Source: Parcubacteria group bacterium
Lineage (GTDB): Bacteria > Patescibacteriota > Minisyncoccia > SW-4-49-11
DNA length: 31,777 nucleotides
Reading direction: 5' to 3'
Assembly (NCBI GenBank): GCA_003565105.1
Contig: PXDG01000050.1
Span: forward strand, 1-31,777
Numbering within the stretch: the stretch's first letter is position 1; every line of letters starts with the position of its first letter. This document shows positions 6,218 to 24,777 of this stretch, one piece after another. The notes under the pieces were generated by a model. That model did not search any database. It was given only the letters and a program-made list of their open reading frames with translations, and was not told where the DNA came from. A program made the position numbers and the translations under genes.

Positions 6218-7312
6218 TTAATGAATTTCTTTGAATGAAATGTAGTTAGCTTTCACTTCTGACTCATTGAGTTCCCTATCATAAATAAGAATTTGAGAAA
6301 GGAGTCCATCCATATAGCTATGCCCTCTTCCGTCTCGACCAATATCCATATTTGACGAATTCAGATTTAGGTTTTGTGTAGTATTTGATGTTATTTGATC
6401 TTGAAGAGCTCCATCAAAATAAATTCTCATTCGTTTGATTGAATTATCAAACGTGATGGTTACTTGAGTCCATTTATTGTGGTATCCTTGCCAAGATGTA
6501 TTTAAATTCATATTATTAGTAATACGAAAGTTACTAATTCCACTTTGTCGGGCAAAGATATATGTTGCATTTGTCACATTAGATGATGGTACAAACCCAA
6601 TTATCGTTTCTTCTCTATCAGAGCGATTGACCCAAAAAGAAATACTAAAGTCTGCTGACGATAATTCTGAACGTAGTAAATCATTCAAGCGTATGAATCC
6701 ATCCGTACCATTAAAAGAAAAGACGTTTTGATTGGTGTCAAAGGTAACTCCATTTACCAAAGAAGCATGATAGTTATTATTTGTAAGATCGAACCATTCT
6801 TGACCTGTTCCAGGATATGATTCAGCTTCTTTGGGATCAAGATGAGTAATGAGACCCTCTGTAACCAGTGACTGTGTATGATTTATTCCAATCCCATTGG
6901 AATCGGTAGTATCAGCATAGACTGCAACTTGATCATTCTCAGAATGAATCCATGCAAATATTCCTGTTTCTCCTGACTCAAAAGGAGATTCAGGAATAGC
7001 TGCTAAGTACTGAGGAACGAGAGGACGAAGATCAACACAATCACTTGCTACACTTCCTTCTCCAGATGATGATGACTCTGTAGCACAGACTTCTTGGATA
7101 TCCGAAGAAAGAGTCTCTGGATATCCACCGTGATCAATCAGATATTGTTGTATGGCCTTGTGCACGGTATTTAGGTTGTTCTGAACTTCAGCGGTCCTGA
7201 CTTGGTCTAGCTGTCTCTGAGGATTAATCGCCACAATCACAATGGCAGCAAGTATTCCTATAGCTGCAATAACGAGAAGTATTTCGAGAAGAGTGAAAGC
7301 TTTTTGTTTCAT
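6218..7312 (-). CDS. Type IV pilin-like protein with C-terminal LamG/concanavalin A-like domain
   Basis: Class III signal MKQKA|FTLLEILLVIAAIGILAAIVIVAINP with Glu5; C-terminal GLITHLDP..SYPGTGQEWFDL..NGVTF..FSFNG, SISFWVN, WTQVTITFD, YFDGAL, IGRDG and ILIYDRELNESEV typical of LamG jelly-rolls. Confidence 0.85.
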   Translation of the reverse strand: MKQKAFTLLEILLVIAAIGILAAIVIVAINPQRQLDQVRTAEVQNNLNTVHKAIQQYLIDHGGYPETLSSDIQEVCATESSSSGEGSVASDCVDLRPLVPQYLAAIPESPFESGETGIFAWIHSENDQVAVYADTTDSNGIGINHTQSLVTEGLITHLDPKEAESYPGTGQEWFDLTNNNYHASLVNGVTFDTNQNVFSFNGTDGFIRLNDLLRSELSSADFSISFWVNRSDREETIIGFVPSSNVTNATYIFARQSGISNFRITNNMNLNTSWQGYHNKWTQVTITFDNSIKRMRIYFDGALQDQITSNTTQNLNLNSSNMDIGRDGRGHSYMDGLLSQILIYDRELNESEVKANYISFKEIH

Positions 7313-9557: not shown

Positions 9558-9667
9558 GTCCTTGCGAAAATCTACTTTCCCCATAAAGAGTATCATCGAC
9601 TTGCAAAGGCTTAACTTCTGAGTTCGGAATGTATCAGGTGGACCCCTTTACAACGAATCACAAGGAC
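9558..9667 (-). rRNA. rrf: 5S rRNA
   Basis: Minus strand contains CACCTGATACATTCCGAACTCAGAAGTTAAGC and CGATGATACT..GGGAAAGTAG; ends enclosed by a 22-bp stem (9543-9564 with 9661-9682). Ends approximate. Confidence 0.92.
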
Positions 9668-9694
9668 GCTTTTGTTCCAAAGTGTTGGTTGAGC

Positions 9695-12815
<3,121 letters not shown>

Positions 12816-19464: not shown

Positions 19465-22029
19465 TTAATTTGGATTCACGACTTCAAAGGTCAGTCCTTC
19501 TGAACTTTTTGCAACCTTGATACTATCTCCTGCGGTTAATTCACTATCTAACAACTTCAAGGCTAACGGATCTTCAATTTCACGGGTAATAATTCGCTTC
19601 AACGGACGCGCTCCCATCACAGGATCAAATCCACGCTGAGCCAGATACTCCTTCGCTTCACTGGTAAGATCAAGCGTAATACTTTGCTCTGATAATCGTT
19701 GGTGGAGTCTAGAAAGTTGAATATCCACAATCGCAATCAATTGTTGTTGAGTTAAGCCGTGAAAAATGGTAATGTCATCAAGCCTATTCAAAAACTCTGG
19801 TCGAAAGAAGTTTTGTAGTTCTTTCCGAACTATCTGCTCTATCTCCTGAACAGAAGTCTCATCTGAGTGTTCTAAAATTTTATCAGACGCAAGATTAGAC
19901 GTCATAATAATGACTGTATTTCGAAAATCCACGGTACGTCCCTGACCATCAGTAAGACGCCCATCATCCAATACCTGAAGTAACGTGTGAAACACGTCTG
20001 AGTGCGCTTTCTCTATCTCATCAAGAAGAATCACACTATATGGATTACGACGAACAATTTCAGTCAACTGTCCTCCTTCTTCATATCCTACATATCCTGG
20101 AGGAGCTCCAATCAATCGAGCTACTGAATGTTTTTCCATATATTCAGACATATCAATCCGTCGTAGACTATCTGGCGTTGTGAACAAAATCTCAGTCAAT
20201 GACTTCGCTAACTCAGTTTTCCCAACTCCTGTAGGACCTAAGAACAAAAAACTACCAATTGGTCGATCAGGATCTTTCAACCCACTACGTGAACGACGTA
20301 TTGCTCGTGCAACGGACTCTACTGCCTCTTCTTGTCCAATAACTCTTTTATGTAACTCTTCTTCTAAATGCATTAATCGTTCCTTCTCCCCTTCTAACAG
20401 CTTATCCACTGGAATATGAGTCCATCGAGAAATTACTTCCGCAATATGCTCTTCTGTAACTTCTAAGGTCACAAATCGTGCTTGAGCTAAAGACTGTTCG
20501 GTGGCTTGAAGTTTTGCTTCTTGATCAGGAAGAGTTTTGTATTTCAATTCTGCAGCTCTATTAAGGTCATACTCTCGTTCAGCTCGATCAATTTCAACTC
20601 TGATATTATCTAATTCCGTTTGAGTACTTCGTAGCGATTGTAATATCTCTCGTTCTTTTTCCCAATCAGTTTTGAGAGTAGATACTTGGTCAGTAAGTTC
20701 TTTTAATTCTGTATTAATTTCTTCCCTTCGACTCTTTGATTTTGCATCTCTTTCTTTTGATAAAGCTTGTTTTTCTATCTCAAGCTGCATTGTACGTCGT
20801 TGCAAAAAATCAATTTCTTCAGGAGCGGATTCTAACTGCATTCTCAGTTTTGCGGCAGCTTCATCGACTAAATCAATCGCCTTATCAGGTAGTTGCCTAT
20901 CTGAAATATACCGTTGAGATAATTGAGTAGCCGAAATCAATGCAGGATCAGTAATTCGCACTCCGTGATGTAACTCATACCGTTCCTTAATCCCCCGCAA
21001 AATACTAATAGTATCCTCTGTACTTGGTTCTGCTACAGTTACTGGTTGAAATCGTCGTTCTAAAGCAGCATCTTTTTCAATTTCCCGATATTCTTTTAAG
21101 GTTGTGGCACCAATCATATGAAGTTCTCCACGAGCTAAAGCAGGCTTCAACATATTTCCCGCATCTACCGATCCTTCACTCTTTCCAGCACCGACAATGG
21201 TATGAAGTTCATCAATGAACAAAATCACTTCTCCTGCAGCTTGCGTCACTTCTTGAATAATAGCTTTCAGTCGTTCTTCAAAATCCCCACGAAACTTTGC
21301 ACCAGCAAGTAAGGCACTCACTTCTAAGGAAACAATACGCTTATCTTTTAAGCCATCAGGAACATCTCCATTAATAACTCTCAGAGCAAGTCCTTCTATT
21401 ACAGCTGTTTTTCCTACACCAGGTTCTCCAATCAAAACAGGATTATTTTTCGTCCGTCGAAGTAAAATTTGCATAATACGTCGAATTTCTTCATCTCGTC
21501 CAATGACTGGATCAAGTTTTCCAGAACGAGCTCGCTCGGTAAAATCAGTACCATATTTCAAAAGAGCATCCATAGTTTGTTCTGCATTTTGAGAATGAAT
21601 TGGATTTGATTGTCTTTGTTGTTTCATATGTTTCATTACAGTTTCTAATGATACGTGAGCGGTAAGGCTCGGAAGATATTCTAAACAGGCTACAAATAGT
21701 GTATCAGCTCCGATAAAAGAATCCTGAAAGGACTCCTGGAGGTCTTTCGCTTTCTGAAAAACCTGTGAAGTTTTAGCACTCATATACTGCCCTGCTTCTG
21801 CTTGAGATGAATGAGACATATCTTGCAGTTCAGCGTACAATACCGATACCAATTGCTGATAATCTTGATCAATCGATCTCATTAGGGATTGGGTCACCCC
21901 CTCAGGGAGTCGTAATAGTTCATAGGCAATATGTTCTGGTTCAATGGCCTGATGTCGAAGCTCTCGAGCAAGTTGCTGGGCTGACTGAATAGCCTGTAGT
22001 GATTGGTGAGTAAAATCATTTGGATTCAT
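19465..22029 (-). CDS. clpB: AAA+ disaggregase ClpB
   Basis: N-domain, Walker A GEPGVGKT and [15 protein letters not shown] and LLDEIEKAH, coiled-coil M-domain, [18 protein letters not shown] and GARPLKR; no IGF/IGL ClpP-docking loop visible. Confidence 0.96.
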
Positions 22030-22046
22030 AAAGATATGTATAATTA

Positions 22047-22631
22047 TTATACTCCTTCTCGACCTAATCGTCGAACTGTTGAAAAATAAGACTCCTTCTT
22101 TGTATCGTCGATATTTTGGACATTAAAAACGGTACGCTGAATCGGGTGAAACCCAACAAACGCAAGTACTCCGTGCTTCAATCCTTGATAAAAGGAATCC
22201 TTTCTTACCCAATAAGAATACCACTGAGGAATCGTCTGGGTATAAATAACCCGTGCAGATCGACCAGAGAGGCGTTTTTCCCACCCGGGAATAAACCTAT
22301 CCATATGCATATTAAAAGCAAATCCAGGGAGCAAAATTCGATCAAAGAGCCCTTTTAATTTTGCAGGGACAGATTCCCACCATACGGGGGTAACAATAAC
22401 CCAGTGATCACACCACTCTAGGTTCTGTTGTTGTTCTATTAAATCGGGTTCAAGTTCTTGTATAGATTTGTAGCCATTCTTAAGTACTGGATCAAACGAC
22501 AGTGATCGCAAATGAACCAATCGAACGGTATGTCCCGCCTCACGAGCTTCTTGAGCATATATTTTCGCTAAATCAGTACCAAACACTGATTTATAGGGAC
22601 TCGCATCTAAAACGTAAATTTGTTTTGCCAT
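22047..22631 (-). CDS. Flavodoxin-fold NAD(P)H-dependent oxidoreductase (MdaB/KefF-like)
   Basis: DL..QQQNLEWCDHWVIVTPVWWESVPAKLKGLFDRILLPGFAF; start reassigned to MAKQIYVLD (22631) because TGgTATACT lies at 22668-22660, inside the longer ORF call. Confidence 0.85.
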   Translation of the reverse strand: MAKQIYVLDASPYKSVFGTDLAKIYAQEAREAGHTVRLVHLRSLSFDPVLKNGYKSIQELEPDLIEQQQNLEWCDHWVIVTPVWWESVPAKLKGLFDRILLPGFAFNMHMDRFIPGWEKRLSGRSARVIYTQTIPQWYSYWVRKDSFYQGLKHGVLAFVGFHPIQRTVFNVQNIDDTKKESYFSTVRRLGREGV

Positions 22632-22668
22632 ACAGAATTTATTGCAAATATATATACTTAGTATACCA

Positions 22669-22701
22669 CAAAAGAAGACCCTCAGCACGATGCAAAGGAT
22701 C
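22669..22701 (-). terminator. Probable intrinsic terminator of the nblA-like gene
   Basis: Minus strand GATCCTTTGCA-tcg-TGCTGAGGGTC hairpin (G-U pairs, one mismatch) followed by TTCTTTTG, 12 nt after the stop. Confidence 0.5.
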
Positions 22702-22713
22702 TAGTGGTAAAGT

Positions 22714-22902
22714 TTACACATTTCTATTGATATTCCAACCCTGTCTGATAAGATTCTTGTAAGTATTTTCTCGTACCAACATATTTTCGTATAGTTTTAC
22801 GAGAATTTCCTGAGCTTGTTCGTGGCTCATTTTTCCTACTTCATGTTCAAACAACGTTAAATTGAATTGTTGCTCTAAAGTCAAATGAGTATTGTCCATC
22901 AT
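22714..22902 (-). CDS. nblA: NblA-like phycobilisome degradation adaptor protein (62 aa)
   Basis: MMDNTHLTLEQQFNLTLFEHEVGKMSHEQAQEILVKLYENMLVRENTYKNLIRQGW aligns without gaps to the NblA pattern L(S/T)LEQQF..F..V..MSH.QA..LVKLYE.M.VRE.TY..L.K..W as I recall it from Nostoc PCC 7120; GGAGG 8 nt before the ATG at 22902. Confidence 0.88.
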   Translation of the reverse strand: MMDNTHLTLEQQFNLTLFEHEVGKMSHEQAQEILVKLYENMLVRENTYKNLIRQGWNINRNV

Positions 22903-22910
22903 AGTGATAC

Positions 22911-22975
22911 CCTCCATCACTAAACTACCTAAACCATATCAAAATTACGAGTAAATGTAAAGTAGGTTATCCACA
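22911..22975 (-). promoter_or_regulatory. nblA promoter, Shine-Dalgarno site and upstream DnaA-box 9-mer
   Basis: TTTACA (22961-22956)-N17-TATGGT (22938-22933) with TG extension; GGAGG at 22915-22911; TTATCCACA on the + strand at 22967-22975. Confidence 0.55.
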
Positions 22976-22992
22976 TTAGACAGGATTATAGC

Positions 22993-23184
22993 CTACCCAC
23001 CTTCTGATTCACTTCTTAATTTGCGAATAGAAAAGGATTGTATCATTTTTTTTGATACTTTACCATGTTGCTCAAAAAAAATATGCCGTGCTTTGGTATC
23101 CATATATTTATCTTCAAATACAGTACCATCTCGAAGTTTAACTCGAACAGTCTTACCTTTATATGTTGAGGAATGAGTTGACAT
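22993..23184 (-). CDS. Small basic hypothetical protein, possible Sm/Hfq-like beta fold (63 aa)
   Basis: MSTHSSTYKGKTVRVKLRDGTVFEDKY..HIFFE..KV.KKMIQSFSIRK; fills the pepA-nblA gap on the coding strand. Start at 23184 preferred over 23217. Confidence 0.6.
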   Translation of the reverse strand: MSTHSSTYKGKTVRVKLRDGTVFEDKYMDTKARHIFFEQHGKVSKKMIQSFSIRKLRSESEGG

Positions 23185-23259
23185 AAAAGAAACGTATCTC
23201 GTTATCACAGAAGCCAATTAGTATAGAATCAGTAATCAGCTTCTGTAGAAAATGAGATA

Positions 23260-24777
23260 TTATATATCTTGCTGGTCAATTTTTTGCACAAAGCGTACTA
23301 ATGATCGTACTGTTTGACCAGTAGCTCCATCAACACCTATGGCATTTTTCTTTTTGTTATAAGCTGATCCTGCAATGTCTAGATGAGCCCATTTATAAGC
23401 TTTTGGTGATTGAATATCGAGATTAGTATTTCTAAATAAATTCTGATCTACAAAATGAGATAAGAATAATCCAGCAGTAATATGCCCTCCCATTCCAGCT
23501 TCTTTTCCAAGATTCAAAAGATCTGCAACATCCCCTTGTACTTGCTCTCGAAGAACTTCTGCCATAGGAACATATATTGTTTTTTCTTGTTGCTCAAGGA
23601 AAGTTTCTTGCAAGAGCTCAATCAACTCTCGATCGTTTCCCATCAAAGCAGTGAAGTGTTCTGTAAGAGCCCGAACACAAGCCCCAGTCAAAGTTGCTGC
23701 ATCAATAATATAATCAGGATCTTGGAGCGTAGCGTATGTTAAAGCATCTGCCAAAGTTAATCTTCCTTCTGCATCGGTATTGATAACTTCAATCGTTTGA
23801 CCTGAATAGGAAGTCAGAATGTCATCCGACTTATAGGCATTTCCTCCCACCATATTCTCTGCAAAGGCAGAAATCCAATGAACTTCTGTATGATCTAAAT
23901 CAAGAAGTGATAATGTTTTCATTACTCCAAACATTGTAGCGGATCCCCCCATATCCATTTTCATCGTTTTCATATGTCCTCCAACTTTGATATCCAATCC
24001 TCCAGAATCATAGGTCAAGCCCTTTCCGACCAAAGCAATACGATTTTTGACATCGCCTTCTGGCTTCATAACTACATGCACTAACACTGGCGGATTTATA
24101 CTCGCCCTCCCAACTGCTAGAAAAGCTCCCATACCCATTTCTTCTAATGCATCTTTATGGATAATTGAGACTTCAACTTGAGACTTCCCTTCAAATTCAG
24201 TACGAATTCGATCTACCACAGTAGCTGGGTTAAAAGTATTTGGTGGTAAATCAATTACTTCTCTGGTCAAAGTAATTCCTTTTGCTAACGCAGCTAACTC
24301 ACGCTCTACTTTCAAGGTTTTCAATGAAGTATCTTCTTCTGACAATGACAAAGTCAAGGTTTTAGATTGTTTTTTATCTGGAGCTAAATAGGTGTCTAAC
24401 TTCCAAGCTGCTTGATACATTCCTAATGCAAATCTCAATAGGGCATCTTGCTTTGAGTCATCTGAACCTTCTCCGTCACAAAACCCGTGTAAGGTAAAAG
24501 TATCAATATTCGTTTTTGACAGACTATGAATAACTGAGCTTCCTAACTCATAAAAGTCAACCTCATCCCATACATCAGTAGATTTTATCGATGACTCTTT
24601 AGTAACCCCTATATATACAGCATTAGATTCAGGAAGATAAGCTATCTGCTTATATGCTCCAGTAAACTTCATACACTCTCTTAATTCTTCAGTCAGAACT
24701 GATTTCACTGATTCTTTCCTAACTAAATACACGTGTGTAGCGGTTGTAAGTGGAATGGGCGAAAACGTATAATTCAT
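23260..24777 (-). CDS. pepA: M17 leucyl aminopeptidase
   Basis: Metal and catalytic motifs VGKGLTYDSGGLDIK, MKMDMGGSA, NTDAEGRLTLADAL and WAHLDIAG; TGgTATAAT promoter at 24809-24801. Confidence 0.95.
   Translation of the reverse strand: MNYTFSPIPLTTATHVYLVRKESVKSVLTEELRECMKFTGAYKQIAYLPESNAVYIGVTKESSIKSTDVWDEVDFYELGSSVIHSLSKTNIDTFTLHGFCDGEGSDDSKQDALLRFALGMYQAAWKLDTYLAPDKKQSKTLTLSLSEEDTSLKTLKVERELAALAKGITLTREVIDLPPNTFNPATVVDRIRTEFEGKSQVEVSIIHKDALEEMGMGAFLAVGRASINPPVLVHVVMKPEGDVKNRIALVGKGLTYDSGGLDIKVGGHMKTMKMDMGGSATMFGVMKTLSLLDLDHTEVHWISAFAENMVGGNAYKSDDILTSYSGQTIEVINTDAEGRLTLADALTYATLQDPDYIIDAATLTGACVRALTEHFTALMGNDRELIELLQETFLEQQEKTIYVPMAEVLREQVQGDVADLLNLGKEAGMGGHITAGLFLSHFVDQNLFRNTNLDIQSPKAYKWAHLDIAGSAYNKKKNAIGVDGATGQTVRSLVRFVQKIDQQDI

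Follow-up and report, generated by a model that had tools for sequence, protein, structure and literature searches.

Why would a bacterium without phycobilisomes carry the protein by which cyanobacteria dismantle theirs? The question is raised by a stretch of 31,777 nucleotides (the window), contig PXDG01000050.1 of a Parcubacteria group genome (GCA_003565105.1). On its minus strand, a first-pass annotation made from the letters alone had recognised a short open reading frame (ORF) as nblA, the gene of the phycobilisome-degradation adaptor, and had proposed that an epibiont or parasite uses it to break down the antenna of a cyanobacterial host. NblA works as a dimer; by binding the ClpC chaperone as well as phycobiliprotein subunits, it recruits the Clp protease (10.1101/494369; PMC12695635). 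Until now, the family was taken to occur only in organisms with phycobilisomes and in their viruses. Overall, the interpretation was partly supported: the gene was confirmed and its native location is well supported, while its use against a host is a reading that we hold tentatively.

Identity of nblA and absence of its partners

The gene under study is the following:

22714..22902, minus strand: nblA coding sequence (62 aa plus stop), NblA/Ycf18 family, assigned by Pfam PF04485, a PDB 1OJH match, conserved columns and an AlphaFold2 model

The ORF starts with the ATG at 22902, its codons run down to 22717 and its stop lies at 22714-22716; the product has 62 aa from this ATG and would have 68 aa if an upstream GTG were used. 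The protein matched the Pfam NblA profile PF04485 with 78.9 bits (E 3.8e-22, profile positions 2-49 of 50), far above the curated gathering cut-off of 25 bits, and the nblA ORF scored 78.5 bits in a six-frame search of the whole genome. The NblA proteins of a Spirulina genome scored alike (82.1, 81.1 and 50.4 bits), placing the window protein in the same range. The top phmmer match in the PDB was 1OJH, NblA of Nostoc PCC 7120 (E 5e-14, residues 5-59 on residues 5-59, ungapped). The first-pass annotation had claimed an ungapped, same-numbered alignment to the Nostoc protein with 27 of 50 positions identical between L7 and W56; the count proved exact on the 1OJH alignment, as did the retention of L51 and the replacement of K53 by R.

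An alignment of 178 sequences (177 family members and the window protein) was used to assess conservation. All columns conserved at 80% or more are retained (L7, E10, Q11, F13, F18, V22, Q29, A30, L34, L37, Y38, Y48 and W56), and the single deviation from the 70% consensus is G57N. The N-terminal motif L-[ST]-L-E-Q-x-F is present (L7, L9, E10, Q11, Q12, F13), in columns that are 76-98% conserved in the 177 members. At position 53, 11% of family members have arginine, among them copies from cyanobacteria and from phage contigs. We take the LxLEQQF motif to be the ClpC-binding site, and L51 and K53 are presumably the residues that bind phycobiliproteins.

The AlphaFold2 model (75 homologues, pLDDT 89.4) predicted a helix-loop-helix, with helices at residues 9-23 and 27-55, so that the 62-aa protein agrees in length and predicted fold with the family (approximately 55-70 aa, helix-loop-helix). 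Foldseek found no significant match of this model in the PDB, which we read as a limit of the method for so tiny a hairpin. The NblA equivalog NF045916, the sole NCBIfam family matched, gave 26.4 bits, below its cut-off of 100; this model looks narrow, because the window protein scores there as weakly as it does against S. elongatus NblA (3CS5, 29.5 bits with phmmer). Judged by profile, alignment and predicted fold, the ORF is a canonical NblA and not a divergent one. It shares family, length, numbering, N-terminal motif, L51, W56 and predicted helix-loop-helix with the Nostoc protein, and differs from it by K53R, G57N and an altered segment at residues 16-21.

The largest difference from the cyanobacterial case is the carrier. 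Six-frame searches of the genome gave no match to phycobiliproteins (PF00502) or to reaction-centre proteins (PF00124), while the Synechococcus control was positive for both. ClpC was not found in the genome, in which the sole Clp_N protein is the ClpB of this contig (it passes the ClpB equivalog cut-off). ClpP was not found either; an apparent match in the genome, the only one to the ClpP family, was rejected as an NfeD1b membrane protease. These absences hold subject to 8% genome incompleteness. The 92%-complete genome thus encodes no substrate of the canonical NblA pathway and no ClpC-ClpP machinery for it, and because phycobilisomes, photosystems, ClpC and ClpP are all missing, the canonical pathway could run only in another cell.

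Chromosomal location of nblA

The window (contig C63 of the bin) is the longest of 189 contigs in a 1.16-Mb genome with an estimated contamination of 2.5%. Its GC content is 38.6% (39.7% in the genome), and it is the contig nearest to the tetranucleotide centroid of the bin, as long contigs tend to be anyway. It carries complete 23S and 5S rRNA genes and 25 housekeeping genes. The genes of the contig include ftsW/rodA, murD, an MraY-like transferase, pyrH, a pilin-LamG fusion, tig, secD/secF, ybaB, pth, an LCP protein, clpB, a flavodoxin-like oxidoreductase, pepA, dus, hsp20, prsW, hpf, murB and a DUF4012 protein; no phage-type gene was found among the ORFs of its 31.8 kb. Cyanophage auxiliary metabolic genes (AMGs) lie in a phage or prophage; nblA does not, and its flanks are native and syntenic with a relative.

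The 23S gene is 89-93% identical over its full length to those of genomes of the same GTDB family, and PepA is 68%, 61% and 51% identical to same-family proteins. In several of these relatives (G004, G007, G011 and G012) the 23S gene is split by insertions of about 85-290 nt, a trait described for the candidate phyla radiation (CPR; PMC11270868). The listed relatives sampled at family, class and phylum level, from more than 140 families, all had genomes of 0.5-1.2 Mb. Two other comparisons gave no further help in placing the lineage: ClpB matched all phyla at 50-56% with no useful synteny, and the 23S gene set against named MAGs was uninformative. Small size, native rRNA, pilins, DUF4012, LCP, a VirB4-like ATPase and a type IV coupling protein (T4CP) are features of this genome typical of CPR. 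Ribosomal protein L30 was not found in the genome, but it was also absent from the cyanobacterial control. From genome sizes and gene features, it is very likely that the carrier is a small CPR/Patescibacteria-type chromosome, which, with the missing phycobiliprotein and reaction-centre genes, bears out its earlier description as CPR-like and non-photosynthetic. The organism occurs in soda-lake and salt-lake metagenomes, and CPR have been documented in soda lakes (PMC6146748). The 23S and 5S genes stand together (window 9559-12748) with tig where the 16S gene would be expected; the 16S gene is on another contig, indicating an unlinked rRNA operon.

Around nblA, four native genes were identified:

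19465..22029, minus strand: clpB, a disaggregase and not ClpC (NCBIfam TIGR03346, 1246 bits against a cut-off of 1232; 66% identical to the syntenic gene fragment of the sister-genus genome G002)
22047..22631, minus strand: flavodoxin-like NAD(P)H oxidoreductase, downstream neighbour (Pfam Flavodoxin_2, 110 bits; 65% identical to the syntenic G002 gene)
22993..23217, minus strand: conserved small ORF, upstream neighbour (84% identical to the syntenic G002 ORF; no Pfam or NCBIfam match)
23260..24777, minus strand: pepA, M17 leucyl aminopeptidase (Pfam Peptidase_M17, 338 bits)

The sister genus (G002, contig C34) has the order clpB, oxidoreductase, three unrelated genes, small ORF, pepA (PepA being 68% identical), and in the window nblA alone takes the place of these three genes. 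By this comparison, the oxidoreductase gene and the small ORF are ancestral flanks, and what lies between them is a variable cargo slot. A clpB-nblA-pepA arrangement purpose-built for protein harvesting was considered and rejected: the block exists without nblA in the sister genus and predates it. Direct or inverted repeats around nblA amounted to short chance-like matches, none pointing to an integration site. The G002 slot (L101:1733-4260) encodes a 404-aa secreted beta-propeller-like protein, a 202-aa membrane protein and a 206-aa hypothetical protein. The small ORF, which lies just downstream of pepA in both genomes, encodes a basic product of about 60-74 aa.

Support for the clpB-nblA-pepA junctions came from independent data. 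A 1082-bp ENA contig from an independent assembly matches window positions 22510-23591 at 99.63% and takes in part of the oxidoreductase gene, nblA, the small ORF and part of pepA, so that both junctions are covered. It differs from the window by four single-nucleotide polymorphisms in 1082 nt, located in pepA, an intergenic spacer, the small ORF and the nblA tail, the last one being non-synonymous (I58S). A soda-lake run contributed a Logan contig that is identical to the window over 22816-23212 and bridges nblA and the small ORF. In the sequencing runs the organism is present at low depth (word depth about 3-5); nblA was uncovered in a 2012 run, which is uninformative at such depth. The location of nblA in the chromosome is well supported as native, being neither an assembly nor a binning artefact, and the rRNA, housekeeping genes, synteny and independent assemblies show that the contig is not cyanobacterial, phage or chimeric.

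Leader, relatives and distribution of nblA

The gene is accompanied by three putative expression signals:

22911..22915, minus strand: Shine-Dalgarno site GGAGG, 8 nt 5' of the ATG, read off the sequence
22933..22961, minus strand: promoter-like site from a consensus scan (TTTACA, 17 nt, TG-extended TATGGT)
22670..22702, minus strand: intrinsic-terminator-like hairpin (22676-22702) with a U-rich tail (22670-22675, UCUUUU), from RNA folding

The first-pass annotation had described a self-contained unit with promoter, ribosome-binding site and terminator. The GGAGG site stood at the distance given above. The terminator also stood: the 94 nt after the stop (22632-22725, minus strand) folded at -26.3 kcal/mol (z -4.3), with none of 200 shuffles as stable; a simple scan gave no terminator on the nblA strand, and the hairpin came from folding. 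The promoter-like site is present, but the consensus scan found 7 such sites where 5.2 were expected in shuffles, which is not above chance. No NtcA-type box was seen by eye in the nblA leader.

The Shine-Dalgarno site bears on the origin of the gene. In this genome, GGAGG precedes 1.7% of long ORFs against a background of 1.8%, that is, without enrichment, in a crude estimate that takes the first ATG of each ORF as the start. By contrast, a GGAG-type site at like spacing was found in nearly all of the cyanobacterial and phage nblA genes inspected. Because GGAGG is rare here and near-universal there, the leader probably came along with the nblA gene. The 3' end of the 16S rRNA (G000:C122:1182-2680; L209:2660-2680) carries the CCUCC anti-Shine-Dalgarno sequence; despite this, translation initiation in this genome seems to occur mostly without Shine-Dalgarno pairing. 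In codon usage, nblA does not stand out from the genome (35th percentile), and its third-codon-position GC content of 0.37 resembles that of the genome (0.33) and of viral copies (0.39) more than that of cyanobacterial copies (0.48).

Database searches placed the closest relatives at some distance. The best non-self matches among 1.8 billion representative proteins were 55-64% identical, and no donor above 64% identity was found among 15 billion proteins, 400 cyanobacterial genomes and IMG/VR. In the cyanobacterial genomes, 139 of the 400 had a match (best 58-60% identity), and IMG/VR yielded 69 NblA-bearing viral contigs with this query (best 55%), while the NblA proteins of cultured Microcystis phages are only 33% identical to the window protein. 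JGI metagenomes gave no NblA match and no PepA closer than 53%, leaving no close orthologues for a comparison of non-synonymous and synonymous rates (dN/dS). Four of the nearest relatives with long contexts lie on phage-like contigs, next to terminase, Bro-N, pRha, RNR, Thy1 and tail-protein genes or in long runs of small ORFs; one relative (P0003) groups with a low-GC cyanobacterial genome. A further protein, P0122, has 230 aa with an NblA N-terminus followed by a region resembling an HNH/AP2-type endonuclease (by eye); it might represent a phage nblA invaded by a homing endonuclease.

The tree that had been proposed to trace the gene was built from 97 NblA sequences. It placed the window protein on a long stem (1.17 substitutions/site), in a weak group that includes two phage-contig copies and no cyanobacterial-genome sequence (SH-aLRT 83), whereas most of the remaining tree was unresolved and no donor emerged; with 65 columns and possible long-branch attraction, it is a hint only. 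We consider it very likely that a cyanophage or cyanobacterium was the source from which nblA, its Shine-Dalgarno leader included, was acquired horizontally, and that the gene is now a one-gene unit in a variable slot of a soda-lake Patescibacteria chromosome. The lack of a donor closer than 64% identity in the databases argues against a very recent transfer. We read these relationships as pointing to a phage-type lineage as the likelier donor, and to a transfer that was either not very recent or from an unsampled source; no claim is made about the exact donor.

A search of other Patescibacteria had also been proposed. Synteny was found in the sister genus, where the block lacks nblA, and a divergent match was found elsewhere in the genome of one relative. 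Six-frame scans gave no NblA above the cut-off in 60 relatives, in 400 further genomes of the phylum or in 40 from the phylum of a named Patescibacteria metagenome-assembled genome (MAG). Among approximately 520 sampled genomes of what is likely the same phylum there was just one other match, in the same-family aquifer organism G003. A broader profile run over 81 relatives found only the present genome and G003, the latter by construction, as its repeats are in the profile.

G003, a 100%-complete genome from a different genus of the family, carries this feature:

L276:1498-1875 (G003:C6:78432-78806), minus strand: tandem NblA-like ORF, detected with Pfam NblA and hhalign

It is a 125-aa ORF of two divergent tandem NblA-like units between pgk and rsmA, near pilin genes. 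The whole protein scored 30.5 bits on Pfam NblA, its halves 22.1 and 14.1 bits, each below the cut-off of 25; hhalign of the halves gave E values of 5e-5 and 4e-5 with probabilities of 67-72%. Homology to NblA is moderately supported by these scores, and the protein could be a fused NblA pseudo-dimer. Many samples, labelled as aquifer, groundwater and hot-spring metagenomes, yielded the identical protein, on 24 or more contigs in all. Its single-sequence AlphaFold2 model (pLDDT 50.9) was too low in confidence to inform. No homologue of the tandem gene was found near pgk or rsmA in the genome studied here. Another tandem two-unit NblA-like protein, P0114, lies on a 1.9-kb contig. In all, two of the five genera of the family have an NblA or NblA-like gene, and no other sampled genome of the phylum does, which makes mere accident less likely for such genes in this family.

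Possible roles of NblA

Because a cell without antenna, ClpC or ClpP can use NblA only in another cell, an effector directed at a cyanobacterial host is the most likely use, and we adopt it as the best reading, while holding it as something less than an even prospect. According to this reading, the epibiont would express NblA and attach to a cyanobacterium, for which its type IV pili, including the pilin-LamG fusion, are candidates. NblA would then be moved into the host cytoplasm, possibly by the patescibacterial type IV secretion system, and would turn the host's own Clp protease on its antenna, the largest protein store of the host; the amino acids freed would feed an auxotrophic parasite. 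Phycobilisomes hold up to half of cellular nitrogen (10.1101/2020.06.14.150680), and viral NblA speeds cyanophage infection, making the cycle about threefold shorter (PMC12695635). The scheme would be the cellular counterpart of the nblA auxiliary gene of cyanophages.

Genes that might serve attachment and delivery are present in the genome. A VirB4-like ATPase (P-loop_TraG, 81 bits; G000:C120:11877-15395) lies beside a 226-aa ORF and rsmA, and a VirD4-type coupling protein (TrwB_AAD_bind, 41 bits; G000:C172:11123-13453) is encoded on a separate contig; type IV secretion system genes of this kind are reported to be widespread in Patescibacteria (PMC12102498). The pilin, a type IV pilin with an N_methyl motif fused to Laminin_G_3/LamG, is encoded in the window (6218-7312, minus strand) between rodA and pyrH and is a candidate host-recognition adhesin. 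A pilin related to it adjoins the NblA-like gene of G003.

The closest known parallel is the nblA of cyanophages (Ma-LMM01, T7-like marine cyanophages and uncultured phage contigs), which likewise sits in a non-cyanobacterial genome and acts on a foreign cell. The window copy resembles these genes in its long-branch, fast-evolving character, its strong Shine-Dalgarno leader and its nearest relatives, which are mostly phage-contig copies. By contrast, its carrier is a cellular chromosome, and whereas a phage expresses nblA inside the host, a cell would need to export NblA. The plastid Ycf18 and nuclear NblA-like genes of red algae belong to the same family and also lie outside free-living cyanobacteria, but red algae have phycobilisomes of their own and this bacterium has none.

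In favour of a retained function, the protein differs from every known NblA by 36-45% and yet has lost none of the columns conserved at 80% or more. Several points weigh against an effector aimed at a cyanobacterium. No signal peptide or known secretion signal was found in NblA. The family-typical constraint could have been imposed in the donor, if an unsampled phage passed the gene on only recently. The gene was seen in one species, in two near-identical strains, and selection on it is for this reason not measurable. The sole ecological link to cyanobacteria is the occurrence in soda-lake and salt-lake metagenomes, and our literature search found no pairing of a cyanobacterium with CPR, nor nblA together with CPR. 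A divergent NblA-like gene exists in a same-family aquifer organism, where cyanobacteria are not expected; if this gene is a true homologue, the NblA-like proteins of the family also occur outside sunlit habitats and, given the aquifer and groundwater origin of G003, need not be tied to phycobilisomes. When two NblA copies were modelled in complex with Nostoc CpcB, the prediction reached a score of 0.19, the mark being 0.34; by the standards of the tool, this speaks neither for nor against binding.

The gene might instead be a neutral passenger, that is, a cyanophage or cyanobacterial nblA cassette that landed in a permissive slot, has not yet decayed and brings no benefit to the cell. Uptake of foreign DNA occurs in Patescibacteria, the variable slot is filled by other, unrelated genes in the sister genus, nblA occurs in one species only, and its foreign-type Shine-Dalgarno site is still intact; an ORF of 186 nt is a small target for disruption, the conserved residues may reflect selection in the donor, and the missing delivery signal fits equally. 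Reduced genomes, however, tend to shed useless DNA, and here the promoter-like site, the Shine-Dalgarno site, the ORF and the terminator are all intact, the gene is kept in both strains, its codon usage matches the recipient genome and the lack of a donor above 64% identity speaks against a very recent arrival. We regard a passenger as rather unlikely. An artefact, whether through chimeric assembly or through misbinning of a cyanophage or cyanobacterial fragment, has a precedent in earlier records: NblA-bearing assemblies labelled as other bacteria, including non-cyanobacterial MAGs, were all cyanophage fragments, apart from one that was cyanobacterial (10.1101/494369), and the bin has its small share of estimated contamination. 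That explanation does not fit here, because nblA lies in a syntenic, rRNA-bearing chromosomal contig with independently assembled junctions; the contig has 25 housekeeping genes, no phage gene and a composition central to the bin, its 23S gene and proteins match same-family genomes, and gene order is conserved on both sides of nblA. The artefact is largely refuted and, in our judgement, highly improbable.

NblA could also be functional on another target, as an adaptor that steers the ClpC-ClpP of a cyanobacterial or other ClpC-bearing host to different proteins, or in a role inside the CPR cell. The long stem of the window protein and the tandem ORF of G003, which is kept unchanged across its aquifer and groundwater contigs, are in line with this. 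The gene also occurs in Prochlorococcus, which lacks phycobilisomes, and expression of viral NblA leads to cleavage of many non-antenna proteins (PMC12695635). On the other hand, the window protein is a canonical NblA that keeps L51 and R/K53, presumed to bind phycobiliproteins; an internal role would lack ClpC and ClpP, which are missing from the genome; and the homology of the G003 protein is only moderate. We consider another target distinctly unlikely, and return to an effector directed at a cyanobacterial host as the preferred reading.

No report of a verified nblA in a cellular non-cyanobacterium was found in the literature, and a verified chromosomal copy in CPR would be the first exception found among cellular organisms. 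The protein is a new member of an established family, in a type of carrier new for it, and the divergent tandem gene of G003 hints at a longer history of this adaptor fold in the family. For an uncultured lineage, the find supplies a host hypothesis that can be tested. If the host-directed reading is true, a CPR parasite would extract nutrients by turning its host's protease on the host's largest nitrogen store, and the auxiliary-gene logic of cyanophages would extend to cellular parasites. This soda-lake bacterium would then be the first cellular organism using the viral NblA strategy, and nblA the first molecular clue to the host of its lineage.

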